From Escherichia coli (GTDB lineage: Bacteria > Pseudomonadota > Gammaproteobacteria > Enterobacterales > Enterobacteriaceae), in the NCBI RefSeq assembly GCF_016026235.1, contig NZ_CP065613.1: a stretch of DNA of 64,000 nucleotides; one strand, written 5' to 3'. The notes under the pieces are model-generated. The model ran no database searches and was not told the DNA's origin. It was given only the letters and a program-made list of their open reading frames with translations. Shown here piece after piece: positions 2,526 to 55,170 of this stretch (the stretch's first letter is position 1; the number at the start of each line of letters is the position of its first letter). Position numbers and translations under genes: made by a program.

Positions 2526-3200
2526 TTAAATCCAGCCGCGTTCGGCAAAAGAAACATACTCTCCACGCCCAATCACGATATGGTCGAGCACGCGTAAATC
2601 CATGAACTGACAACTCTTTATTATCCGTTCAGTAATGAGTTTATCCGCTTTACTGGGTTCAGCGCAACCCGAAGGGTGATTATGTGCAAGGATCAGCGCC
2701 GAGGCGTTTATTTTTATCGCTTCGCGGATAATTTCCCGAGGATGGACTTCAACATGGTTTAGCGTGCCGGAAAAAAGACGGCTATGCGTTATAACCCGGT
2801 GTTGGGAGTCGAGAAAGATCACCATAAAGATCTCCCGCTCCTCACCCGTGAGCTGGCTTTGTAAAAATTCCCTCGTCATCTCCGGGCTGAGTAAAGGGCT
2901 TTCTTCACGCATCCGCACGTTGTAGTAACGCCGCGCCAGTTCAGCAATCCCCTTTAACTGGGCAAATTTCGCCACGCCAATTCCATGAACGCCACTAAAT
3001 TGTTCATATTCAGAGGTTAACAAGCCATAAAGAGAGCCGAAATTCTCCAGCATCTCTTTTGCCAGGGTTAATACATCTTTACCGCGCGTTCCGGTACGCA
3101 GAAATAGCGCCAGCAGCTCGACATCCGTTAAGGCGCTAATACCAAACTTCAGCATTTTTTCGCGCGGCATCAACAGCTGTGAATTGTTTTTCACCTTCAC
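2526..3200 (-). CDS. yicR: UPF0758/RadC-like JAB-domain protein YicR
   Basis: 224-aa ORF with helix-hairpin-helix N-terminus and JAMM-like HNHPSG motif; the true start may be a few codons downstream of the listed one. Confidence 0.9.
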
Positions 3201-3365
3201 CTCCTTTGTGGTGCTCGCATCCTGTCATAGCCGTTTCGTTAAATCGACGGCCAGTTTTCAATCCTGGAAAGCGCCTCGCAAAGTGAATCTCAGGTGAAGG
3301 CACGACAACAAAAGTATTGTGATAAAATCGCCAACTTCTGGTGTCACCCTACAGGAAAAATCATC

Positions 3366-4586
3366 ATGAGCCTGGCCGGTAAAAAAATCGTTCTCGGCGT
3401 TAGCGGCGGTATTGCTGCCTATAAAACCCCTGAACTGGTGCGTTGTTTGCGCGATCGCGGGGCCGACGTCCGCGTAGCCATGACCGAAGCGGCAAAAGCC
3501 TTTATCACCCCACTTAGCTTGCAGGCGGTTTCTGGTTATCCCGTTTCCGACAGTCTGCTGGACCCGGCAGCCGAAGCCGCTATGGGCCATATTGAGCTGG
3601 GTAAATGGGCTGATTTAGTGATTCTCGCCCCTGCCACGGCAGATTTGATTGCCCGTGTTGCTGCCGGAATGGCGAATGACCTGGTATCGACGATTTGTCT
3701 GGCTACACCTGCGCCTGTAGCCGTGCTCCCCGCCATGAACCAGCAGATGTACCGTGCCGCTGCCACGCAGCATAATTTAGAGGTGCTTGCTTCCCGTGGT
3801 TTGCTCATCTGGGGGCCAGACAGTGGCAGTCAGGCTTGTGGTGATATCGGTCCTGGGCGAATGCTCGATCCGTTAACCATTGTGGATATGGCGGTAGCGC
3901 ATTTTTCGCCCGTCAACGACCTGAAACATCTGAACATTATGATTACCGCCGGCCCGACGCGTGAACCGCTCGATCCCGTGCGTTATATCTCTAATCACAG
4001 CTCCGGCAAGATGGGTTTTGCTATCGCCGCCGCCGCTGCCCGTCGTGGCGCGAACGTCACGCTGGTATCAGGTCCGGTTTCACTACCAACGCCACCGTTT
4101 GTTAAACGTGTTGATGTGATGACCGCGCTGGAAATGGAAGCCGCCGTGAATGCTTCTGTACAGCAGCAAAATATTTTTATCGGCTGCGCCGCCGTGGCGG
4201 ATTATCGCGCAGCTACCGTGGCCCCAGAGAAAATCAAAAAGCAGGCCACGCAGGGTGATGAATTAACAATAAAAATGGTTAAAAACCCCGATATCGTCGC
4301 AGGCGTTGCCGCACTAAAAGACCATCGACCCTACGTCGTTGGATTTGCCGCCGAAACAAATAATGTGGAAGAATACGCCCGGCAAAAACGTATCCGTAAA
4401 AACCTTGATCTGATCTGCGCGAACGATGTTTCCCAGCCAACTCAAGGATTTAACAGCGACAACAACGCATTACACCTTTTCTGGCAGGACGGAGATAAAG
4501 TCTTACCGCTTGAGCGCAAAGAGCTCCTTGGCCAATTATTACTCGACGAGATCGTGACCCGTTATGATGAAAAAAATCGACGTTAA
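3366..4586 (+). CDS. coaBC: bifunctional phosphopantothenoylcysteine decarboxylase / phosphopantothenate-cysteine ligase
   Basis: ATG at 3366 gives 406 aa [21 protein letters not shown]... (flavoprotein N-domain plus CoaB C-domain); the listed ORF 3294..4586 is an upstream extension. Confidence 0.95.
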
Positions 4587-5022
4587 GATTCTGGACCCGC
4601 GCGTTGGGAAGGAATTTCCGCTCCCGACTTATGCCACCTCTGGCTCTGCCGGACTTGACCTGCGTGCCTGTCTCGACGACGCCGTAGAACTGGCTCCGGG
4701 TGACACTACGCTGGTTCCGACCGGGCTGGCGATTCATATTGCCGATCCTTCACTGGCGGCAATGATGCTGCCGCGCTCCGGATTGGGACATAAGCACGGT
4801 ATCGTGCTTGGTAACCTGGTAGGATTGATCGATTCTGACTATCAGGGCCAGTTGATGATTTCCGTGTGGAACCGTGGTCAGGACAGCTTCACCATTCAAC
4901 CTGGCGAACGCATCGCCCAGATGATTTTTGTTCCGGTAGTACAGGCTGAATTTAATCTGGTGGAAGATTTCGACGCCACCGACCGCGGTGAAGGCGGCTT
5001 TGGTCACTCTGGTCGTCAGTAA
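4564..5022 (+). CDS. dut: dUTP diphosphatase
   Basis: [35 protein letters not shown]...; overlaps the coaBC 3-prime end as in K-12. The start could be the second Met at 4567. Confidence 0.95.
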
Positions 5023-5128
5023 CACATACGCATCCGAATAACGTCATAACATAGCCGCAAACATTTCGTTTGCGGTCATAGCGTGGGTGCCGCCTGGCAA
5101 GTGCTTATTTTCAGGGGTATTTTGTAAC

Positions 5129-5725
5129 ATGGCAGAAAAACAAACTGCGAAAAGGAACCGTCGCGAGGAAATACTTCAGTCTCTGGCGCTGATGCTGGAA
5201 TCCAGCGATGGAAGCCAACGTATCACGACGGCAAAACTGGCCGCCTCTGTCGGCGTTTCCGAAGCGGCACTGTATCGCCACTTCCCCAGTAAGACCCGCA
5301 TGTTCGATAGCCTGATTGAGTTTATCGAAGATAGCCTGATTACTCGCATCAACCTGATTCTGAAAGATGAGAAAGACACCACAGCGCGCCTGCGTCTGAT
5401 TGTGTTGCTGCTTCTCGGTTTTGGTGAGCGTAATCCTGGCCTGACCCGCATCCTCACTGGTCATGCGCTAATGTTTGAACAGGATCGCCTGCAAGGGCGC
5501 ATCAACCAGCTGTTCGAGCGTATTGAAGCGCAGCTGCGCCAGGTATTGCGTGAAAAGAGAATGCGTGAGGGTGAAGGTTACACCACTGATGAAACGCTGC
5601 TGGCAAGCCAGTTGCTGGCATTTTGTGAAGGTATGCTGTCACGCTTTGTCCGCAGCGAGTTTAAATACCGCCCGACGGATGATTTTGACGCCCGCTGGCC
5701 GCTAATTGCCGCGCAGTTGCAGTAA
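5129..5725 (+). CDS. slmA: nucleoid occlusion factor SlmA (TetR family)
   Basis: ATG at 5129 gives 198 aa [52 protein letters not shown]... with a TetR-type HTH. Confidence 0.95.
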
Positions 5726-5739
5726 TTCTCCCCTAAACG

Positions 5740-5772
5740 GTCAGGCAGAAACGTCTGCCTGACGCTTTTCTT
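5740..5772 (+). terminator. slmA rho-independent terminator (hairpin could act bidirectionally toward the convergent RT gene)
   Basis: GTCAGGCAGA-AACG-TCTGCCTGAC perfect 10-bp stem followed by GCTTTTCTT. Confidence 0.5.
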
Positions 5773-6730
5773 ACCCTGCAACCAGCATTCGCTTAACACT
5801 CTCTCTCGCCTGTTGAAAGGCCTCATCCTCAGGGTTGATTTGCAATAACCAGTTTATTCTTCCCTGCAAAGCATAAAGATACGCCGTTGCCTGTGCGTGG
5901 AGATCGCCAGAAGGATCAAGTTCACCACGATGACTAAGATGCGAAATAACGCCATATTTTTGGCACAAGTGTACTTCCTGACGCAGCGCCCGGCGCGCTT
6001 CGCGGGCAAGCTGTGGTTTGTGATTAACAACAATCCCGGTTACTTGCTGGCGCTTACAGGCAGCTATCAGGCAGCTTTTGCGTTGATAGAGGCTCAGGCC
6101 CAGCTCCGCTAACAATCCGCACACTTTATTTTTAACCTGGCGGGCATTGAAGTGACCTGAAAAGGTCATGTCATCGCAGTAGCGGGTGTAGGTAATTCCC
6201 CGAGCCTGACACCATTCCCCTATGCGTTCATCAAAACAGCGCATCACAAGATTGGAAATGGCTGGCGAAGTTGGTGCCCCCTGTGGTAACGCGTCGTTAT
6301 AACAACAAATCCAGGTCAGCATGGTTACCACATTACGTGGCAACTGGACCTGGCGAAACACACGCCAGACCTGTAACCAGCTAATGCTATCGAAAAAGTT
6401 TTCGATATCGAGTTTCAGGATCTGCGGCTGTTGGCAGTGTGGCTGCGCGTTGCTGACGATTGGGCAACCTGGTCGGTAGGCTGTAGCAAAAGGGGAAAGC
6501 GGAAATTGTGAAAGGACGTTCTTAAGAATGTTGCGCTGTACGGTTTTGAGCAAGTAATCAGGGGCTAACACCAGCCGCTGACCACCGTGGCGTTTAGAAA
6601 GAATAATGCGTCGGTAATGGCGTCCGGCATGATTACTGAGCGCATACAACCGCTGTATTTCTTTATCGGCGCTCCAGCCCGGCGAGCCGAACAAATCGAG
6701 CGCCAGAAGGGTTATCCGGGTAGCATCCAT
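5771..6730 (-). CDS. retron-type reverse transcriptase, consistent with retron Ec107
   Basis: RT motifs in the translation: LKLDIENFFDSI, LPQGAPTSPAISN, YTRYCDDMTFSG (YxDD box) and the retron-typical VTG motif (QQVTGIVVN). The internal ATG at 6730 gives 319 aa; the listed ORF begins at an upstream GTG. Lies between slmA and pyrE, where retron Ec107 is reported (recalled, not searched). Confidence 0.9.
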   Translation of the reverse strand: MDATRITLLALDLFGSPGWSADKEIQRLYALSNHAGRHYRRIILSKRHGGQRLVLAPDYLLKTVQRNILKNVLSQFPLSPFATAYRPGCPIVSNAQPHCQQPQILKLDIENFFDSISWLQVWRVFRQVQLPRNVVTMLTWICCYNDALPQGAPTSPAISNLVMRCFDERIGEWCQARGITYTRYCDDMTFSGHFNARQVKNKVCGLLAELGLSLYQRKSCLIAACKRQQVTGIVVNHKPQLAREARRALRQEVHLCQKYGVISHLSHRGELDPSGDLHAQATAYLYALQGRINWLLQINPEDEAFQQARESVKRMLVAG

Positions 6731-6763
6731 TCCACTCTCCACATCACGGCGGCCAAAAGAGGT

Positions 6764-6954
6764 GCCAACAGCGGCAATACCATTAAACCATCCCGAAGGC
6801 GCGTAACTGTACTGAGCGCGTCAGCGCGACGTACGCGAAGCGTACTTAAGTACAATGAAGCGACTTTGGGTATATGGACATACTACTGGCGTTAAGTCGG
6901 CGACTCGCCGACCCTCCCGGCACAAAGGCCGGAAACGCTATTGCCACTGCTGGC
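6764..6954 (-). ncRNA. retron msr-msd non-coding RNA (template for msDNA), bounded by a1/a2 inverted repeats; boundaries approximate
   Basis: Minus-strand a1 GCCAGCAGUGGCAAUA (plus 6939-6954) pairs over 16 nt (including 2 G-U wobbles) with a2 UAUUGCCGCUGUUGGC (plus 6764-6779), which sits 34 nt upstream of the RT ATG. Between them are msr hairpins (GUCGGCGA-G-UCGCCGAC) and a palindrome-dense msd stem (GUACUUAAGUAC, GCGC-UGAC-GCGC). Confidence 0.55.
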
Positions 6955-7025
6955 GAAAGCAGATTAACACGATATCTTAAAGCGCATCACGCTGCGCACA
7001 GTAAAAACTTGCGCAGCGCATATTT

Positions 7026-7667
7026 TTAAACGCCGAACTCTTCGCGATAGGCCTTAACCGCCGCCAGATGTTCCGCCATTTCCGGCTTCTCTTCCAGGTA
7101 GGCAATCAGATCTTTCAGGGTGATGATAGAGATCACTTTGCAGTTGTAATCACGCTCAACTTCCTGAATCGCCGAAATCTCGCCGCGCCCGCGTTCCTGA
7201 CGATCAAGCGAAATCAATACGCCAGCAAGCGTCGCGCCATTGGCCTGAATAATTTCCATCGACTCGCGAATCGCCGTTCCGGCGGTGATCACATCATCCA
7301 CCAGCATTACGCGTCCTTGTAACGCGCTACCGACCAGATTGCCGCCTTCACCGTGGTCTTTTGCCTCTTTGCGGTTAAAGCAGTACGGCAGGTCCAGGTC
7401 ATGATGCTCCGCCAGCGCCACGGCGGTTGTGGTAGCAATCGGGATCCCTTTGTAAGCAGGGCCAAACAGCAGATCGAACTCAATGCCGGAATCCACCAAT
7501 GCTTCAGCGTAAAAACGGCCTAACAGTGCCAGATCGCGCCCGGTATTAAACAGCCCGGCGTTGAAGAAATAGGGGCTTTTGCGCCCGGATTTCAGCGTAA
7601 ACTCACCAAACTTTAATACCTGTTTGCTAAGCGCAAATTCAATAAACTGGCGCTGATATGGTTTCAT
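7026..7667 (-). CDS. pyrE: orotate phosphoribosyltransferase
   Basis: ATG at 7667 gives 213 aa [40 protein letters not shown]... with the PRPP-binding motif [13 protein letters not shown]. Confidence 0.95.
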
Positions 7668-7698
7668 GCCTTCGCTCCTCATCTTACTTTTCTACAGA

Positions 7699-7728
7699 CA
7701 AAAAAAAGGCGACTCATCAGTCGCCTTA
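7699..7728 (-). terminator. pyrE attenuator (intrinsic terminator in the rph-pyrE intercistronic leader)
   Basis: Minus-strand hairpin AAGGCGACUGAUGAGUCGCCUU followed by a U9 run, directly after the rph stop and upstream of pyrE. Confidence 0.6.
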
Positions 7729-7732
7729 AAAA

Positions 7733-8449
7733 TCAGTTTGCCAGCGCCGCCTTCTGCGTCGCTACAATGGATTCGATTCCCCCTCGGGCCAGCGCCAACA
7801 AGGTGAGTAACTCTTCATGGGTGAACGGCTCGCCTTCTGCCGTCCCCTGCACTTCAATGATGCGCCCGTCTTCGGTCATCACTACGTTCATGTCGGTCTC
7901 TGCGGCTGAGTCTTCAACGTATTCCAGATCGCAAACCGCTTCGCCGTTCACAATCCCGACAGAAACCGCGGCTACCATCCCTTTCATTGGATTGGTTTTC
8001 AGCTTGCCGTTTTCCACCAGCTTCTGTAGCGCATCTGCCAGCGCCACACAGGCACCCGTAATCGAAGCGGTACGCGTGCCACCATCAGCCTGAAGCACGT
8101 CGCAGTCCAGCGTAATGGTGAACTCACCCAGCGCTTTCAAATCTACTGCCGCACGAAGAGCACGGGCGATCAGACGCTGGATTTCCATTGTGCGTCCACC
8201 CTGCTTACCTTTCGCTGCTTCACGAGCGTTACGGGTGTGGGTAGAACGTGGCAGCATGCCGTATTCTGCGGTGATCCAGCCCTGGCCCTGACCTTTCAGG
8301 AAGCGAGGCACGCCTTCTTCAATAGAGGCGGTACACAATACTTTGGTATCGCCAAATTCGACCAGCACCGAGCCTTCTGCATGTTTTGTATAGTTACGAG
8401 TCAGGGTAACGGGACGCACCTGATTATTGCTACGGCCTGCTGGACGCAT
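7733..8449 (-). CDS. rph: ribonuclease PH, intact full-length reading frame
   Basis: ATG at 8449 gives 238 aa [41 protein letters not shown]..., read through to the natural C-terminus without the K-12 rph-1 frameshift. Confidence 0.95.
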
Positions 8450-8575
8450 ATTGAAATCTCCGGCTTGAAACAAATGTGGCTGCGCATTATACGGACTTCC
8501 GGCGGTTATTCCTATCCTGACAAGGCATCGATGGCTATAATCCTTCCACCTCTCCTTTTATAAACAGGAACGTCT

Positions 8576-9439
8576 ATGATCCGCAGTATGACCGCCTACG
8601 CCCGGCGTGAAATCAAGGGTGAATGGGGGAGCGCAACCTGGGAAATGCGCTCGGTAAACCAGCGTTATCTGGAAACTTACTTTCGTCTGCCGGAGCAGTT
8701 CCGTAGCCTTGAACCTGTCGTTCGTGAGCGTATTCGTTCTCGCCTGACGCGCGGTAAAGTGGAATGTACCCTGCGCTATGAGCCAGATGTTAGCGCGCAA
8801 GGTGAGCTGATCCTCAACGAAAAACTGGCTAAACAGCTGGTAACTGCCGCGAACTGGGTAAAAATGCAGAGTGACGAAGGGGAAATCAACCCGGTTGATA
8901 TTCTGCGCTGGCCGGGCGTGATGGCAGCCCAGGAGCAGGATCTTGACGCCATTGCCGCTGAAATTCTCGCGGCGTTGGATGGCACCCTGGACGACTTTAT
9001 TGTCGCGCGCGAAACCGAAGGTCAGGCACTGAAAGCATTGATCGAGCAGCGTCTGGAAGGCGTCACCGCCGAAGTGGTCAAAGTCCGCTCCCATATGCCG
9101 GAAATCCTGCAATGGCAGCGTGAACGCTTGGTCGCGAAGCTGGAAGATGCTCAGGTGCAGTTGGAAAACAACCGTCTGGAGCAGGAGTTGGTTCTGCTGG
9201 CACAACGAATTGACGTTGCCGAAGAGCTGGACCGCCTCGAAGCGCATGTCAAAGAGACCTACAACATTCTGAAGAAAAAAGAAGCCGTTGGTCGTCGTCT
9301 GGACTTTATGATGCAGGAGTTCAACCGCGAGTCGAACACTCTTGCGTCGAAGTCTATCAATGCCGAAGTGACAAACTCCGCGATTGAGCTGAAAGTGTTG
9401 ATTGAGCAGATGCGCGAGCAGATTCAGAATATTGAATAA
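8576..9439 (+). CDS. yicC: YicC-family stress-induced protein
   Basis: 287 aa MIRSMTAYARREIKGEWGSATWEMRSVNQRYLETYFRLPEQFR... matches the YicC family. Confidence 0.95.
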   Translation: MIRSMTAYARREIKGEWGSATWEMRSVNQRYLETYFRLPEQFRSLEPVVRERIRSRLTRGKVECTLRYEPDVSAQGELILNEKLAKQLVTAANWVKMQSDEGEINPVDILRWPGVMAAQEQDLDAIAAEILAALDGTLDDFIVARETEGQALKALIEQRLEGVTAEVVKVRSHMPEILQWQRERLVAKLEDAQVQLENNRLEQELVLLAQRIDVAEELDRLEAHVKETYNILKKKEAVGRRLDFMMQEFNRESNTLASKSINAEVTNSAIELKVLIEQMREQIQNIE

Positions 9440-9475
9440 CTCGTAACGCCAATTCTTACTTTTCAGCCTTCACAA

Positions 9476-9510
9476 ATGCCGCCCACTCAAACAGAGCGGC
9501 ATTTTTCTTC
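9476..9510 (+). terminator. yicC rho-independent terminator
   Basis: ATGCCGC-(loop)-GCGGCAT hairpin followed by TTTTTCTT. Confidence 0.4.
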
Positions 9511-9599
9511 CCCGCAACTTTCAATTCTGTTTTGCGTGCCTGCTCCAGATTTTGCGATGTCTTTTTGCCCAGCACACTGAGAACGTGAGACACTCACAA

Positions 9600-9615
9600 C
9601 TGTATATAAATACAG
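9600..9615. promoter_or_regulatory. LexA operator (SOS box) in the dinD promoter
   Basis: CTGTATATAAATACAG fits the CTGT-N8-ACAG LexA consensus, about 45 bp upstream of the dinD start. Confidence 0.6.
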
Positions 9616-9660
9616 TTACAGATTTACTTTCTTTGCAATCGATATCACATGGAGTGGGCA

Positions 9661-10484
9661 ATGAACGAACATCATCAACCTTTTGAAGAGATACGGCATT
9701 ATGGCACTGAAGGGCAAGAATTTTGGTCAGCGAGAGAATTGGCACCGTTACTGGATTATCGGGACTGGTGCAATTTTCAAAAGGTACTGACCCGCGCGAC
9801 TCAAGCGTGCGAAGCCAGCAATCAAGCTGCATCTGACCATTTCGTTGAAACCACCAAAATGGTTGTATTAGGTTCAGGGCTCAACGAGAACTTGAAGATG
9901 TTCATCTCTCCCGCTATGCCTGTTACCTGGTAGTACAAAACGGCGACCCTGCGAAACCGGTTATTGCGGCAGGACAAACTTATTTTGCTATCCAGACCCG
10001 ACGGCAGGAGCTGGCTGACGATGAAGCTTTCAGGCAACTTCGTGAAGACGAAAAGCGTCTTTTTCTGAGAAATGAATTGAAAGAACATAACAAACAATTA
10101 GTTGAGGCAGCGCAGCAAGCTAGGGTAGCGACAGCTATCGATTTCGCCATATTTCAGAATCATGGTTACCGGGGGCTGTATGGTGGATTAGATCAGAAAG
10201 CCATCCATCAGCGGAAGGGGCTGAAAAAGAGTCAGAAGATCCTGGATCATATGGGTTCAACAGAACTGGCGGCTAATCTCTTTCGAGCTACCCAAACAGA
10301 AGAAAAACTTAAGCGGGATGGCGTGAATTCAAAACAGCAAGCTAACACCACACACTTTGACGTAGGTCGCAAGGTGAGGCAAACCATTCAGGAACTTGGC
10401 GGAACCATGCCTGAGGAGTTGCCGACCCCGCAGGTCAGCATTAAGCAGTTGGAAAACAGTGTAAAAATTACAGAGAAAAAATAG
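9661..10484 (+). pseudogene. dinD: DNA damage-inducible protein DinD, disrupted by a 1-bp deletion frameshift
   Basis: ORFs 9649..9933 and 10077..10484 are the same protein in two frames. Frame 0 resumes ...[21 protein letters not shown]... right after a GGG run at 9877-9879, which is one G short of the GGGG remembered in the intact K-12 gene. Total span is 824 nt against 825 expected. Confidence 0.75.
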
Positions 10485-10775
10485 CAGAAACTAAAAACTC
10501 TTTTTGTTGATTGAGACACCCGATGCGTAAGCCAAAGTCCAGGTGCGGTGAATACAATAGCTAAACATTGCACCTTTCTTTTCCACCCCTCAGTTTTAAC
10601 CTATTTTTTCTTATGCATTTTCTCAGACAAGAAGTCAGAAGAATGCATCTCCGCTACAGAAAATAGAGATTTCACATAACTACAAGTTATCAATTCCCCC
10701 TCACCTTAAAAAATCTCAATCGTGACAATGCGCACAAATCGCTACCCTGCCAGACAGATTTTTAGGGAGAGAACC

Positions 10776-13118
<2,343 letters not shown>

Positions 13119-36037: not shown

Positions 36038-36132
36038 GGAAGATCGTCGTCTCCGGTGAGGCGGCTGGACTTCAAATCCAGTTGGGGCCGCCAGCGGTCC
36101 CGGGCAGGTTCGACTCCTGTGATCTTCCGCCA
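36038..36132 (+). tRNA. selC: tRNA-Sec (selenocysteine tRNA)
   Basis: GGAAGATCGTCGTCTCCGGTGAGGCGGCTGGACTTCAAATCCAGT...GATCTTCCGCCA: 95 nt, long acceptor stem and extended variable arm, TCA anticodon in the loop (CTTCAAATC), genomically encoded CCA. Confidence 0.9.
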
Positions 36133-36769: not shown

Positions 36770-37954
36770 ATGCAAAAAACGGCTACCACTCCATCAAAAA
36801 TACTTGATCTCACTGCCGCGGCATTTTTACTTGTCGCCTTTCTGACGGGTATTGCGGGCGCTCTTCAGACTCCTACCCTAAGTATATTCCTCGCAGATGA
36901 ACTGAAAGCCCGTCCTATAATGGTAGGTTTTTTCTTCACCGGTAGCGCTATTATGGGAATTCTGGTCAGTCAATTTCTGGCAAGGCACTCCGATAAACAA
37001 GGCGACCGTAAATTACTGATTCTGCTATGTTGCTTATTTGGAGTGCTGGCCTGCACGCTTTTTGCGTGGAATCGCAACTACTTCATTCTGCTCTCAACGG
37101 GCGTACTTCTGAGTAGTTTTGCTTCCACCGCAAACCCGCAAATGTTCGCCCTCGCCCGTGAACACGCCGATAGAACAGGCCGTGAGACGGTCATGTTCAG
37201 TACATTTTTACGTGCTCAGATCTCGCTTGCCTGGGTTATCGGGCCACCGCTCGCTTATGAACTGGCAATGGGATTTAGTTTTAAAGTGATGTATCTCACC
37301 GCTGCCATCGCATTTGTTGTTTGCGGGCTGATAGTCTGGTTGTTTTTGCCATCAATACAAAGAAATATTCCTGTCGTTACCCAACCCGTAGAAATTTTAC
37401 CCTCCATCCATAGAAAGCGAGATACGCGGCTACTTTTTGTGGTTTGTTCAATGATGTGGGCGGCGAATAATCTCTACATGATAAATATGCCGCTATTTAT
37501 TATTGATGAACTGCATCTAACCGATAAACTGGCTGGAGAAATGATTGGTATCGCTGCCGGTCTGGAAATTCCGATGATGTTAATCGCAGGCTATTACATG
37601 AAACGTATTGGCAAGCGACTATTAATGCTCATTGCTATCGTGAGTGGAATGTGTTTTTACGCCAGCGTACTCATGGCGACGACTCCGGCGGTTGAGCTGG
37701 AATTGCAAATTCTTAATGCCATCTTCCTTGGTATTCTCTGTGGTATCGGCATGCTTTATTTTCAGGACTTGATGCCTGAAAAAATAGGCTCTGCGACAAC
37801 GTTATATGCAAATACTTCACGCGTCGGCTGGATTATCGCCGGCTCTGTTGACGGAATTATGGTTGAAATCTGGAGCTACCATGCGTTGTTCTGGCTGGCG
37901 ATAGGGATGTTGGGTATTGCGATGATTTGCCTGCTGTTTATTAAAGATATTTAG
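36770..37954 (+). CDS. setC: sugar efflux transporter SetC (MFS)
   Basis: 394 aa MQKTATTPSKILDLTAAAFLLVAFLTGIAGALQTPTLSIFLADELKARP... Confidence 0.9.
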   Translation: MQKTATTPSKILDLTAAAFLLVAFLTGIAGALQTPTLSIFLADELKARPIMVGFFFTGSAIMGILVSQFLARHSDKQGDRKLLILLCCLFGVLACTLFAWNRNYFILLSTGVLLSSFASTANPQMFALAREHADRTGRETVMFSTFLRAQISLAWVIGPPLAYELAMGFSFKVMYLTAAIAFVVCGLIVWLFLPSIQRNIPVVTQPVEILPSIHRKRDTRLLFVVCSMMWAANNLYMINMPLFIIDELHLTDKLAGEMIGIAAGLEIPMMLIAGYYMKRIGKRLLMLIAIVSGMCFYASVLMATTPAVELELQILNAIFLGILCGIGMLYFQDLMPEKIGSATTLYANTSRVGWIIAGSVDGIMVEIWSYHALFWLAIGMLGIAMICLLFIKDI

Positions 37955-38064
37955 CTCACCAGTCTGGGCTAAGAAAAATCGGCGTGGCGCAAACAGAGCC
38001 ATCCTCGCCATTTTTGCTATCATGCCTGCATACATAAACGACAAAACAGTATGCAGAGGGAAAA

Positions 38065-38988
38065 ATGGGTTCCACCAGAAAGGGGATGCTGAACGTTCTG
38101 ATTGCCGCCGTGTTGTGGGGAAGTTCAGGGGTCTGCGCGCAATACATCATGGAGCAAAGCCAGATGTCGTCGCAGTTTTTGACTATGACGCGTTTGATAT
38201 TCGCCGGTTTGATTCTACTGACGCTGTCATTTGTTCATGGCGATAAAATCTTTTCTATTATTAACAATCATAAAGATGCCATTAGCCTGCTGATTTTTTC
38301 CGTGGTTGGCGCGCTAACTGTACAGCTCACTTTTTTGCTAACCATCGAAAAATCGAACGCAGCCACGGCAACGGTGCTGCAATTCCTCTCACCGACGATT
38401 ATCGTCGCCTGGTTCTCACTGGTGCGTAAATCGCGCCCGGGCATTCTGGTTTTCTGCGCTATTTTGACATCGCTGGTCGGGACTTTTTTATTGGTGACAC
38501 ACGGTAATCCGACGTCATTATCGATCTCTCCTGCCGCGTTGTTCTGGGGCATTGCCTCGGCATTTGCTGCTGCATTCTATACCACCTATCCCTCAACGCT
38601 AATTGCCCGCTATGGCACGTTACCAGTCGTCGGCTGGAGTATGCTGATTGGCGGTCTGATTCTGTTGCCTTTTTATGCCAGACAAGGAACAAACTTTGTC
38701 GTTAACGGCAGTTTGATTCTGGCGTTTTTTTATTTGGTGGTCATTGGTACGTCCCTGACATTTAGTCTGTACCTGAAAGGAGCACAATTAATTGGCGGTC
38801 CAAAAGCCAGCATTTTGAGCTGTGCAGAACCATTAAGTAGCGCGCTACTCTCTTTGCTGTTGCTGGGGATCACGTTCACATTACCGGACTGGCTGGGAAC
38901 GCTGCTGATTCTGTCATCGGTGATTTTGATTTCAATGGATTCCCGTCGCCGCGCCAGAAAAATAAATCGTCCGGCGCGGCATGAGTGA
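38065..38988 (+). CDS. yicL: EamA/DMT-family transporter YicL
   Basis: 307 aa [33 protein letters not shown]..., about 10 TM segments. Confidence 0.9.
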
Positions 38989-38991
38989 GAA

Positions 38992-39810
38992 TTACCAGCC
39001 AGGCACCGCGCCACCGTTAAAAATGGTTTCTGCCGCTTTAGCGACTTCGGGTGATTGATAAGATTGCAGAAATTCCTTCACGTTTTCTGCATTCTTATTA
39101 TCTTCCCGTGCCACCAAAATATTCACATACGGCGAATTCTTATCTTCAATAAATACGCTGTCGTGCACCGGAGAAAGCCCTGTCTGCTGAATGTAAGTGG
39201 TGCTGATAATCGCTACATCAACTTTGGGATCATCCAGTACGCGCGGAAGCTGCGCCCCCTCGAGTTCCATAATCTGCAAATGACGAGGATTATCGGTTAT
39301 ATCCAGCGCGGTAGGTAATAACCCTTTTCCCTCTTTCAGAGTAATTAGCTTCTCTTTTTGCAACAGTAAAAGTGCGCGACCAAGGTTGGTCGGGTTGTTG
39401 GGGATCGCCACTGTCGCGCCTTCTTTTATTTGCGCCACGGTTGTGATTTTTTTGGAATAACCCGCCATAGGGAAGACAAACGTATTTCCCACCGCTACCA
39501 GTTTATAACCATGCGCCTGATTATCTTGTTCAAGAAAGGGTCGATGCTGGAAGACATTCGCATCAAGTTCGCCATGATTTGTCGCATCGTTCGGTAGCAA
39601 CGAACCGCTAAATCCTACCAGTTCAACATCGAGGCCATATTTCTCTTTTGCCACCTTTTTAGCGACTTCCGCGACATCTTGTTCTGCGCCATTTATAACG
39701 CCAACTTTAATGTGTTTTGCATCGCTGCTACTCTGGTCGCAACCTGCCAGCAGAATTCCGGCCAGCAATAATGCGGCCCCTGTCCGTAGATGATGTGTTG
39801 TCAGTTTCAT
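38992..39810 (-). CDS. nlpA: lipoprotein 28 (MetQ/NlpA family)
   Basis: 272 aa with lipobox LLAGC at the signal peptide end. Confidence 0.95.
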   Translation of the reverse strand: MKLTTHHLRTGAALLLAGILLAGCDQSSSDAKHIKVGVINGAEQDVAEVAKKVAKEKYGLDVELVGFSGSLLPNDATNHGELDANVFQHRPFLEQDNQAHGYKLVAVGNTFVFPMAGYSKKITTVAQIKEGATVAIPNNPTNLGRALLLLQKEKLITLKEGKGLLPTALDITDNPRHLQIMELEGAQLPRVLDDPKVDVAIISTTYIQQTGLSPVHDSVFIEDKNSPYVNILVAREDNKNAENVKEFLQSYQSPEVAKAAETIFNGGAVPGW

Positions 39811-43017: not shown

Positions 43018-44301
43018 GAGTTCTCCTGCGTAATCAAAACTCATGATATCTGGAAACCCTCGCCAGTTACTAATCCACCAGAATAATCTTGAGTGCAAAC
43101 AGAGCTGCGACCACCACCACACACAGGTTCAGATCGCGCCAGCGCCCGGTGCACACTTTCATGATGCAGTACGACATAAAGCCGAGTGCAATCCCTTCGG
43201 TGATCGAGAAAGTAAAGGGCATCATCACCGTGGTAATAAACGCAGGCACCGATTCGGTAAAATCATCCCAGTTAACGCGCGCCAGGCTCGAAGTCATCAG
43301 CACGCCAACAAAGATTAACGCTCCAGCGGTTGCGTAAGGAGGAACCATCGCCACCAGCGGTGAGAAGAACATAACCAACAGGAACATAACGCCAACCACA
43401 ACCGCAGTCAGCCCCGTGCGGCCACCCACTGCCACGCCAGAAGTACTTTCAATATAGGCGGTAACAGACGAGGTGCCGATAAACGCACCCGCCACCGAAC
43501 TCACGCTATCAACATACAGCGCCTTATTCATATTGGGGAATTTACCGTTACTATCTATTAAGCCAGCTTTATCAGTCACACCAATTAATGTTCCTGATGA
43601 ATCAAATAGGTTGATCAGCATAAAGGAGAAAATGATACCGGCGAGTTCAAGTGTTAACGCGCCGCTCAAATCCACTTCACCAATGACGCCGCTAATATCA
43701 GGCGGAATGGAATAGACACCGCTAAAATGAACATCACCGAAAAATAATCCACAGCAAGACGTCACCACAATAGAAACCAGCACCGCGGCATGAAAATGAC
43801 GTGATGACAACACGGTTATAATAAAAAACCCTAAAATACCTAACAACACGCCGTGAGAACTTAAATCGCCAATCATCACCAGAGTGTCTTTATTGGCGAC
43901 AATAACGCCAGTATTTTTTAATCCCATTAAGGCGATAAATAATCCAATTCCGCTGGTGATACCAATACGTAAACTTAATGGAATGTTGGAGATCATCCAG
44001 TACCGGATACGAAACAGCGTGAGCAAAAATAGTCCAATTGCACCCCAGAATATTGCGCCCATCCCGGTCTGCCATGAGATCCCCATCGCCCCCACGACCA
44101 CGAAGGCAAAGAAGGCGTTCAGCCCCATTGCCGGAGCCAGCGCCACAGGTAAGTTAGCAAATATCCCCATCGCAATGCTGCCGATACCGGCAATCAAACA
44201 GGTGGTAACAAACACCACTTTCGGGTCCATTTGTGCCGCGCCGAGAATTTGCGGGTTCACAAAAACGATGTACACCATGGTTAAAAAAGTGGTCATCCCC
44301 T

Positions 44302-45589
44302 GAGGGATCCCCAGAAAATTTAGTAAACCATTATCATATTGGTATACCGTTGCTGTAGAACTTTCAGCCCTGCGTCAAGTGACAGTGTGTTTAGTATGAG
44401 TGGAGAATGTCGAATCACATTCTCCGCCAGTTTTAATAACGAGATGACTCGCCTGTGCTTCACTGTATTTGCCTGATATTTATGATGTATCCCTTTGTTT
44501 TCCAGGCTGAAACCGCTTAACCACATAATGATACTGGCTAATGTTGCGATCAGACTCAATACCGTGACCCGCCCGGATGAATGACTGGCACCAAACCGTA
44601 GTCCAAATCCCCAGCGAGGATTTTTTCATCCCTGAAATTTTGCTCAATTTGCATTCTACGGCTGTATAATTTCATTACCTGTTTTGGCGAGAACTCAGTA
44701 CTGTTTGTGAAAATAAACCATGGTGATTTCCCGGCAGTACGAGCTTTAGCCGTCACCGATGGTCTGGTTGCTCTTTCCTTCGAGCGTTTAAATCTACGAC
44801 CTTTAGACTTACTTTTATAAAGATAAAAATGCCCTTCATGTTGTGCATTTTTATCTCGACCCAGCAGGCCTTCATCTAAATAAATTGCTGTCGTTGATGC
44901 TTTTGTGCCTGAGTCCGACACCTTTTCCCAGCCATTACCAACATTGTAATAATGATTGCCCAGTACCCGGCAAATATAGGTCCAGCCACGGGAGCGGAGC
45001 TGTTGGAACCATCGCCCCTGAAAACCGGCATCTGTAATAACAATGACATCAGTCCCGGGGGAAAAGCACTCAGCAAGCGATTCCAGAAAACGCTCATGTA
45101 CATCTGCATTCGCTGTCTGTGATGATGGAACGACACAACTCATCAACGGTAAAGAACGCCCGTCACATGCCAGGCTTGCCCGCAAAAGCTGAAAACGAGA
45201 GGCATGATAAGCACTCCAGTCAATGAGTATCACAACACGAGACATTCCCCGCGTAATCTTTTGGGTAATTCGCTGAAAAATGGTGGAAACCTCATTTTGC
45301 AAATGTCGATTCCCCAACAGTCGATCCACCCGCTTTATTTTGTTTTTAACTGATGCCGTACCGGTTAAATGACGCCCGATACTGGTAAGTGTGAGGGAAG
45401 CGCCATTTATTACAGCATTAGTTGCGTCAATCAGTGATTTTTGACGGTAAAGATGCAAAGGGGCCAGTATGTTGTTAAGGAAATTTTGGCATAATGAACG
45501 TGCAGGCATAGTGGTGATCTCCTTGAAATTGTTAGCACAATCAATTAGATCACATCTCACTATGCCTGTCTTGTTTTCTGGGGATTCCT
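44302..45589 (-). mobile_element. IS4-family insertion sequence (IS10-like transposase), about 1.29 kb, with imperfect terminal inverted repeats and a 13-bp target site duplication
   Basis: Ends TGAGGGATCCCCAGAAAA (left) and, as reverse complement, GAGGAATCCCCAGAAAA (right); flanked by direct repeats AGTGGTCATCCCC at 44289-44301 and 45590-45602; encodes an IS10-like transposase. Confidence 0.8.
44320..45509 (-). pseudogene. IS4-family (IS10-like) transposase, reading frame broken by a frameshift in an A6 run
   Basis: MPARSLCQNFL...NKIKRVDRLLGNRHL...DAGF...YLYKSKSKGRRF...LYSRRMQIEQNFRDEK parallels IS10 transposase up to plus-strand 44621-44626 (TTTTTT). The homologous continuation ...NPRWGFGLRFGASHSS...HKYQANTVKHRRVISLL... 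is in another frame, ending at 44320. Confidence 0.7.
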
Positions 45590-45881
45590 CAGTGGTCATC
45601 CCCGCAATCAATTCTGTGCGGACGGTGGTCCCATGCTGAGGTAGTTTAAATAATCGCGAAAGCGTCCCTGATTCATTACTCACGTAATCGGTATTGTCAT
45701 TATTCATTTTTTTGTCCATTGGAGGAGATTTAATCCCTTGCTTTTGTAAAACAAATGACAACAACGGTTCAGTGATAATTATCACATTTCAATTGCACAT
45801 TAATGGATATTCTTTAATAATCTCGCGACGTTTCTTTATGATAAATAATAATCAAATTGATAAAATCAAAATGAGAAAAAT

Positions 45882-47648
45882 ATGAATAATTCTATTAACC
45901 ATAAATTTCATCACATTAGCCGGGCTGAATACCAGGAATTGTTAGCCGTTTCCCGTGGCGACGCTGTTGCCGATTATATTATTGATAATGTCTCTATTCT
46001 CGACCTGATCAATGGCGGAGAAATTTCCGGCCCAATTGTGATTAAAGGACGTTACATTGCCGGTGTTGGCGCAGAATACACTGATGCTCCGGCTTTGCAG
46101 CGGATTGATGCCCGCGGCGCAACGGCGGTGCCAGGGTTTATTGATGCTCACCTGCATATTGAATCCAGCATGATGACGCCGGTCACCTTTGAAACCGCTA
46201 CCCTGCCGCGTGGCCTGACGACCGTTATTTGCGACCCTCATGAAATCGTCAACGTGATGGGCGAAGCCGGATTCGCCTGGTTTGCCCGCTGTGCCGAACA
46301 GGCAAGGCAAAACCAGTACTTACAGGTCAGCTCTTGCGTACCCGCCCTGGAAGGCTGCGATGTTAACGGTGCCAGTTTTACCCTTGAACAGATGCTCGCC
46401 TGGCGGGACCATCCGCAGGTTACCGGCCTTGCAGAAATGATGGACTACCCTGGCGTAATTAGCGGGCAGAATGCGCTGCTCGATAAACTGGATGCATTTC
46501 GCTACCTGACGCTGGACGGTCACTGTCCGGGTTTGGGTGGCAAAGAACTTAACGCCTATATTGCTGCGGGTATTGAAAACTGCCACGAAAGTTATCAGCT
46601 GGAAGAAGGACGGCGGAAATTACAACTCGGCATGTCGTTGATGATCCGCGAAGGGTCCGCTGCCCGCAATCTCAACGCACTGGCACCGTTGATCAACGAA
46701 TTTAACAGCCCGCAATGCATGCTCTGTACCGATGACCGTAACCCGTGGGAAATCGCTCATGAAGGGCATATCGATGCCTTAATTCGCCGCCTGATCGAAC
46801 AACACAATGTGCCGCTGCATGTGGCATATCGCGTCGCCAGCTGGTCGACGGCGCGCCACTTTGGTCTGAATCACCTGGGCTTACTGGCACCCGGTAAGCA
46901 GGCTGATATCGTCCTGTTGAGCGATGCGCGTAAGGTCACGGTGCAGCAGGTACTGGTGAAAGGCGAACCGATTGACGCACAAACCTTACAGGCGGAAGAG
47001 TCGGCGAGACTGGCGCAGTCTGCCCCGCCATTTGGCAATACCATTGCCCGCCAGCCAGTTTCCGCCAGCGACTTTGCCCTGCAATTCATGCCCGGAAAAC
47101 GCTATCGGGTCATTGACGTCATCCATAACGAATTGATTACGCACTCCCGCTCCAGCGTCTATAGCGAAAATGGTTTTGATCGCGATGATGTGTGCTTTAT
47201 TGCCGTACTTGAGCGTTACGGGCAACGGCTGGCTCCGGCCTGTGGTTTGCTCGGCGGCTTTGGCCTGAATGAAGGTGCGCTGGCTGCGACGGTCAGCCAT
47301 GACAGCCATAATATTGTGGTGATCGGTCGCAGTGCGGAAGAGATGGCGCTGGCGGTCAATCAGGTGATTCAGGATGGCGGCGGGCTGTGCGTGGTACGTA
47401 ACGGCCAGGTACAAAGTCATCTACCGTTGCCCATTGCCGGGCTGATGAGCACCGACACGGCGCAGTCGCTGGCCGAGCAAATTGACGCCTTGAAAGCCGC
47501 CGCCCGTGAATGCGGTCCGTTACCCGATGAGCCGTTTATTCAGATGGCGTTTCTTTCTCTGCCAGTGATCCCCGAGCTAAAACTAACCAGTCAGGGGCTA
47601 TTTGATGGCGAGAAGTTTGCCTTCACCACGCTAGAAGTCACGGAATAA
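45882..47648 (+). CDS. ade: adenine deaminase
   Basis: 588 aa [41 protein letters not shown]... with amidohydrolase metal-binding motif ([10 protein letters not shown]). Confidence 0.95.
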
Positions 47649-55028: not shown

Positions 55029-55170
55029 AACAAAAAACCCCGCCGGAGCGAGGTTTCGTCAGCCGCCTGCGGCTGGTAACCGCAAAGCACACTGTATTAT
55101 GTCAACACTGAAAGTATACCTGTTCCGCGCAGAACGCGCAATTTCGGCACGAATTTTGACGTATTTAGTA
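55029..55170 (-). ncRNA. istR: IstR small RNA (antitoxin RNA of the tisB type I toxin system); boundaries approximate
   Basis: Minus-strand terminator at 55029-55058; the segment GCACACTGTATTATGTCAACA (55087-55107) is a near-identical direct repeat of 55345-55365 in the tisB leader, as needed for a divergently encoded RNA to pair with tisB mRNA. Confidence 0.45.

Follow-up and report, generated by a model that had tools for sequence, protein, structure and literature searches.

Is the rph gene of this Escherichia coli strain intact or does it carry the rph-1 frameshift of MG1655, and what does its state tell us about pyrE expression and strain background? According to PMC3378859, which cites Jensen 1993, rph-1 abolishes RNase PH activity and lowers pyrE expression. 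We examined the rph locus within the window, that is, the whole 64,000-nt stretch of DNA that was analysed. With a probability of about 0.97, the rph-pyrE operon of the window is of the ordinary wild type and comes from an E. coli outside K-12.

The rph frame encodes a full-length RNase PH

The gene under study is the following.

7733..8449, minus strand: rph coding sequence, full-length RNase PH (238 codons plus TGA, translated without an internal stop)

A sequence-only reading of this DNA had described an uninterrupted rph frame of 238 codons at 7733-8449. These coordinates proved exact, and the translation contains no internal stop; the strand, on which that reading was silent, is the minus strand. 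The ATG at 8449 is the start of the 717-nt gene, as in the RefSeq rph of F8704-2, ET350, and FDAARGOS_943, and in a mechanical list of open reading frames the same frame reaches further upstream, to a TTG at 8473.

The NCBIfam equivalog for RNase PH, TIGR01966, matches the product with 380.8 bits against a cut-off of 141.5, aligning rph residues 2-236 with positions 1-235 of the 236-position profile. Similarly, the Pfam domains PF01138 (RNase_PH) and PF03725 (RNase_PH_C) cover residues 10-140 (107.1 bits) and 157-222 (58.3 bits), and the product aligns along its whole length with solved RNase PH structures, the best being 1r6l (E = 3.7e-104). Because of these profile, domain, and structure matches, the frame represents a real gene rather than an open reading frame arising by chance. 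The enzyme is predicted to act as a phosphorolytic 3'-5' exoribonuclease that would trim tRNA precursors.

The predicted protein is identical to WP_001247093.1, a common E. coli protein that is also annotated in O157:H7 strain 9234, KMi006, F8704-2, and FDAARGOS_943. In all four, rph resembles that of the window, with 717 nt, an equal stop position, and the order rph-pyrE. At the DNA level, F8704-2 (O39:NM) is 100% identical to the window rph over 921 nt. The DNA allele itself is uncommon, and only five genomes reach at least 99% over the 921-nt query.

The rph-1 deletion site carries the fifth G

The reference for comparison was MG1655 (NC_000913.3), in which rph (b3643) is annotated as a truncated RNase PH of 687 nt. 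The window, MG1655, and the best-matching genome, F8704-2, were aligned over 831 columns. Two positions of the window are important here.

7779..7783, minus strand: five consecutive G (plus strand, ccccc) in codons 223-224, the site of the rph-1 deletion, intact in the alignment
7762..7764, minus strand: TAG that ends the rph-1 product in K-12, out of frame and unused in the window (MG1655 annotation and translation)

The sole indel of the alignment lies in column 688, where MG1655 has a gap and both the window and F8704-2 have a G. Thus, the run is five bases long in the window (GGGGG) and four in MG1655 (GGGG), which bears out the earlier claim that the K-12 frameshift is absent. When translated, the K-12 rph-1 allele yields 228 residues ending in ...ARGESNPL*, and the MG1655 gene stops 29 nt ahead of the wild-type stop. 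In contrast, at the site where rph-1 reads ESNPL*, the window frame reads on for 15 residues. Neither the missing G nor the premature in-frame TAG of rph-1 is found in the window.

Apart from this deletion, MG1655 shares the locus, the leader, the attenuator, and the upstream region with the window. The rph genes are 97.8% identical at the nucleotide level, with 15 substitutions, two of them non-synonymous (V138 and I216 in K-12). Once the G is restored, the K-12 gene encodes 238 residues that differ from the window protein only by A138V and T216I. For annotation, the rph of the window should be called a normal 238-aa gene and not a pseudogene.

The attenuator and leader of pyrE are those of K-12

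Downstream of the rph stop, the following features lead to pyrE; the last lies upstream of the operon.

7733..7735, minus strand: wild-type rph stop TGA, separated by 5 nt from the attenuator stem downstream
7732..7728, minus strand: TTTTT between the rph stop and the hairpin (sequence)
7706..7727, minus strand: pyrE attenuator hairpin AAGGCGACT-GATG-AGTCGCCTT, with a 9-bp stem and a 4-nt loop (terminator scan and folds)
7700..7707, minus strand: run of eight T completing the intrinsic terminator/attenuator (sequence and terminator scan)
7668..7732, minus strand: 65-nt rph-pyrE leader, including the pyrE ribosome-binding region GAGGAG (65/65 positions identical to MG1655)
7026..7667, minus strand: pyrE coding sequence, 213 aa, orotate phosphoribosyltransferase, ATG at 7667 (TIGR00336, 240.6 bits)
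8450..8575, no strand assigned: 126-nt intergenic region between the divergent rph and yicC genes, within which lies the control region upstream of rph-pyrE (100% identical to MG1655)

The stretch from the rph stop to the pyrE start holds an intrinsic terminator (7727..7700). Its hairpin, which is identical to that of MG1655, is present in both the minimum free energy and the centroid folds and was also found by the terminator scan. As the sequence-only reading had it, rph ends directly before this hairpin: the gap from stop to stem is 5 nt, a distance shorter than a ribosome footprint. In contrast, the rph-1 stop lies 34 nt from it. The fold of the 93-nt leader has a z-score of -0.98, which is unremarkable and is expected because the leader holds a single short hairpin.

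All 17 differences between the pyrE genes of the window and MG1655 are synonymous, and the PyrE protein is unchanged. No position of the 65-nt leader or the 126-nt upstream region differs from K-12 (100% identity), yet the adjacent coding sequence is 2-2.6% divergent. Because identity in the leader and the upstream region stands beside this divergence of the flanking genes, the comparison is consistent with constraint on the control regions of rph-pyrE.

The E. coli pyrE attenuator was reportedly described as translation-coupled and UTP-sensitive by Poulsen, Bonekamp, and Jensen in 1984 and by Jensen in 1993. In the established model, RNA polymerase is slowed at low UTP, and a ribosome ending rph is close behind it. 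This ribosome masks the 5' arm of the terminator hairpin, so that the polymerase can read on into pyrE. At high UTP, the polymerase outpaces the ribosome, the hairpin folds, and transcription ends. In rph-1, the loss of one G places the stop 29 nt upstream and leaves the ribosome short of the hairpin, with pyrE under-expressed and RNase PH inactive. Published work agrees that read-through of the attenuator needs translation of the end of rph by a ribosome that closely follows RNA polymerase, and that in rph-1 translation ends too far upstream, leaving MG1655 partly starved of pyrimidines (PMC2784333, PMC3378859, PMC5933015). Moreover, regulation was restored when the stop codon was shifted back toward the attenuator loop (PMC2784333).

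Compared with the characterized K-12 pyrE attenuator with rph restored, the window has an identical hairpin, T run, stop spacing, and leader. Since the stop has its wild-type position and both attenuator and leader equal the characterized K-12 sequences, we infer that pyrE coupling is normal and uracil-responsive in the window strain. While the gene structure can be read directly from the DNA, the regulation is predicted from this identity with the characterized leader. Unlike MG1655 and W3110, the strain would be expected to be neither limited by pyrimidines in its growth nor deficient in RNase PH.

Searches for further elements added little at this locus. No rph promoter emerged from a sigma-70 scan, whose single match, inside pyrE, was within the expectation from shuffled sequence. 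Rfam, applied to the whole window at gathering thresholds, gave nothing at rph-pyrE. A permissive Rfam search of 6600..8600 returned RyhB with 24.5 bits against 55 (E = 0.11); this candidate coincides with the attenuator terminator hairpin and was rejected as a chance match.

A retron replaces the 3' end of the operon

The operon of the window differs from that of K-12 at its 3' end, where a retron stands in place of a 34-nt palindrome.

5727..7024, minus strand: Ec107-type retron, 1,298 nt, replacing the K-12 34-nt pyrE-slmA palindrome (L001 3093..3126)
5771..6730, minus strand: retron reverse transcriptase open reading frame, 319 aa (PADLOC RT_Ec107-like, 435 bits)
about 6764..6954: structured non-coding region of the retron, between pyrE and the reverse transcriptase (fold z = -5.18 against shuffles)

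The structured non-coding region is closed by 21-nt long-range inverted repeats at 6764-6784 and 6934-6954. The retron is the next element after pyrE, has the same orientation, and lies 70-260 nt downstream of the pyrE stop. An effector gene is not apparent next to the retron, and a consensus scan from pyrE to the retron RNA found no promoter and no canonical terminator. Retron Ec107 is said to have been described by Herzer et al. in 1992 in place of the 34-bp palindrome between pyrE and ttk/slmA. A text search of the literature returned nothing relevant on Ec107 together with pyrE.

This replacement is a ground for supposing that rph is intact while pyrE regulation is abnormal through changes elsewhere, such as the replaced 3' end of the operon or trans-acting differences. 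The palindromic terminator between pyrE and slmA has indeed given way to a same-strand retron, and natural variants of the attenuator do occur in other strains (a C deletion in KMi006 and a run of seven T in 9234). In contrast, the attenuator, the leader, the upstream region, and the PyrE protein of the window are those of K-12. The retron arrangement is also common, since a 6.5-kb query with the retron inside it is covered to at least 80% in about half of the complete E. coli genomes (2,602 of 5,424, about 48%). The retron could affect the 3' end of the operon, not the attenuator. We consider abnormal regulation improbable, and nothing in the sequence speaks against the wild-type rph-pyrE reading.

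As for the variants themselves, one C of the 3' hairpin arm is missing in KMi006, and the T run of O157:H7 strain 9234 is T7 rather than T8. At both places, the window is canonical.

Because the retron replaced the palindromic terminator of the operon, read-through into it is conceivable. On this speculative view, which we regard as unlikely, the retron non-coding RNA and reverse transcriptase might be partly transcribed from the rph-pyrE operon, and their expression might hence be tied to the attenuator and to pyrimidine supply. If this were true, retron expression in rph+ wild strains would follow pyrimidine supply, which phage infection perturbs.

Intact rph is the normal state in E. coli

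We searched the complete E. coli RefSeq genomes for the allele with four G using two probes. An 80-nt MG1655 probe centered on the deletion had an exact match in 167 genomes. A 49-nt probe that avoids nearby polymorphic sites found the exact G4 sequence in 168 of the 5,355 genomes it matched; the other 5,187 fell in the band of 95-99% identity to the probe that is expected for a one-base gap. Among the exact matches listed are MG1655, W3110, BW25113, J53, HMS174, and derivatives, and 167 of the 168 G4 genomes have K-12 flanking sequence. The lone non-K-12 genome with G4 is that of the clinical isolate 2015C-3101 (NZ_CP027221.1; 5.3 Mb), whose rph is annotated as frameshifted. Its G4 run reflects either independent homopolymer slippage or an assembly error. 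Intact rph is thus the normal state, seen in about 97% of E. coli genomes.

These counts also bear on whether the open frame might be an assembly artefact, with a homopolymer miscount at the G run masking a real frameshift. A run of five identical bases is error-prone, and 2015C-3101 is a non-K-12 genome in which a G4 run, whether from real slippage or from faulty assembly, has been annotated as frameshifted. However, G5 is present in about 97% of the complete genomes and in the two nearest relatives of the window, F8704-2 (100% identical here) and FDAARGOS_943. An error would need to recreate the common allele exactly, and we judge such an artefact very unlikely. The finding of an intact rph-pyrE operon is correct, ordinary, and already known, and its importance here goes little beyond bookkeeping.

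The strain background is not K-12

The sequence-only reading had taken the intact rph as support for a non-K-12 background. The conclusion holds on other evidence, while the step from rph alone is weak. The rph-1 allele is common to EMG2, MG1655, and W3110 but absent from the K-12 strain WG1 (PMC9997739), and C600, which is rph+, has served as donor strain for wild-type rph (PMC3378859). The K-12 strains NCM3722 and JM109 also have the G5 run, with a 717-nt rph, a 238-aa product (WP_001247096.1), and an attenuator equal to that of the window. Since NCM3722, JM109, WG1, and C600 are all rph+, an intact rph alone is compatible with K-12; as a weak indicator, it excludes only the EMG2/W1485/MG1655/W3110 lineage. 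The status of rph separates lineages inside K-12, not K-12 from other E. coli, and the background of a strain is better judged by sequence divergence and insertions, for example, the retron beside pyrE.

By these measures, the window is clearly apart from K-12. Substitutions relative to MG1655 number 15 in the 717 nt of rph, 17 in the 642 nt of pyrE, and 20 in the 864 nt of yicC. The window has neither the near-zero divergence at rph-pyrE-yicC nor the 34-nt pyrE-slmA palindrome that would mark a K-12 background. The nearest complete genome is that of FDAARGOS_943, with 99.93% identity and no gaps across 2719..9440. The background is established as non-K-12 because of the divergence of rph, pyrE, and yicC, the Ec107-type retron, and the divergent 5' part of dinD.

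The same comparisons weigh on the possibility that the window comes from an rph+ K-12 strain, either one that never carried rph-1, such as NCM3722, JM109, WG1, or C600, or a laboratory revertant. Such strains exist, G5 being present in NCM3722 and JM109 and the rph+ state being reported for WG1 and C600. However, once the G is restored in MG1655, NCM3722 and JM109 match it at 645 of 645 positions, whereas the window differs from K-12 in rph, pyrE, and yicC. The K-12 rph+ allele encodes Val138 and Ile216 and has the K-12 pattern at synonymous sites; the window lacks these. Moreover, the window has a 1,298-nt retron against 34 nt in K-12, a different 5' part of dinD, and FDAARGOS_943 as its closest complete genome. 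Together, these differences leave an rph+ K-12 origin with a negligible probability. Finally, that the window carries rph-1 and is open only through an alternative read-through or a compensating change has no supporting point and is excluded, as the G is present within a run of five, there is no other indel, and the K-12 TAG at 7762..7764 is out of frame.

Identity to MG1655 is uneven around the retron, being 99.5% on the dfp-dut-slmA side (2635..5726) and 97.8% on the pyrE-rph-yicC side (7025..11902). Because of this step across the retron, the comparison suggests a recombination boundary at or near it.

dinD and other loci in the window

In the dinD gene (9649..10484) of the window, one base is missing from a G run just after 9876. 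This deletion changes TCAGGGGCT to TCAGGGCT and splits the gene into open reading frames of 94 and 135 aa. The gene is annotated as frameshifted in FDAARGOS_943 as well. In contrast, F8704-2 has an intact dinD and lacks the retron. The 5' third of dinD, about the first 220 nt of the coding sequence, is a strongly divergent allele relative to K-12.

In FDAARGOS_943, an additional island of about 7.7 kb is inserted just after yicC (L004 5563..13279), for which positions 9440..9460 of the window are the empty site. Its genes encode a tyrosine integrase, a DUF927 protein, a toprim-domain protein, and an Icd-like protein, and the island looks like a satellite prophage.

Further from the operon, an insertion and a small RNA were found.

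44556..45785, minus strand: IS4-family transposase open reading frame, 409 aa (NF033591, 261 bits)
55032..55161, minus strand: istR small RNA, full-length match (Rfam RF01400, 144.8 bits)

The IS4-family frame lies between a purine permease gene (43070..44296) and an adenine deaminase gene (45882..47648), and the 5' end of the permease frame (408 aa) may have been removed by the insertion. The selC gene for tRNA-Sec, a well-known integration hot spot, is at 36038..36128, and the genes directly after it are ordinary ones for transporters (MFS and EamA) and for the lipoprotein NlpA (36770..39810). The selC site of the window strain thus appears to be without an island.
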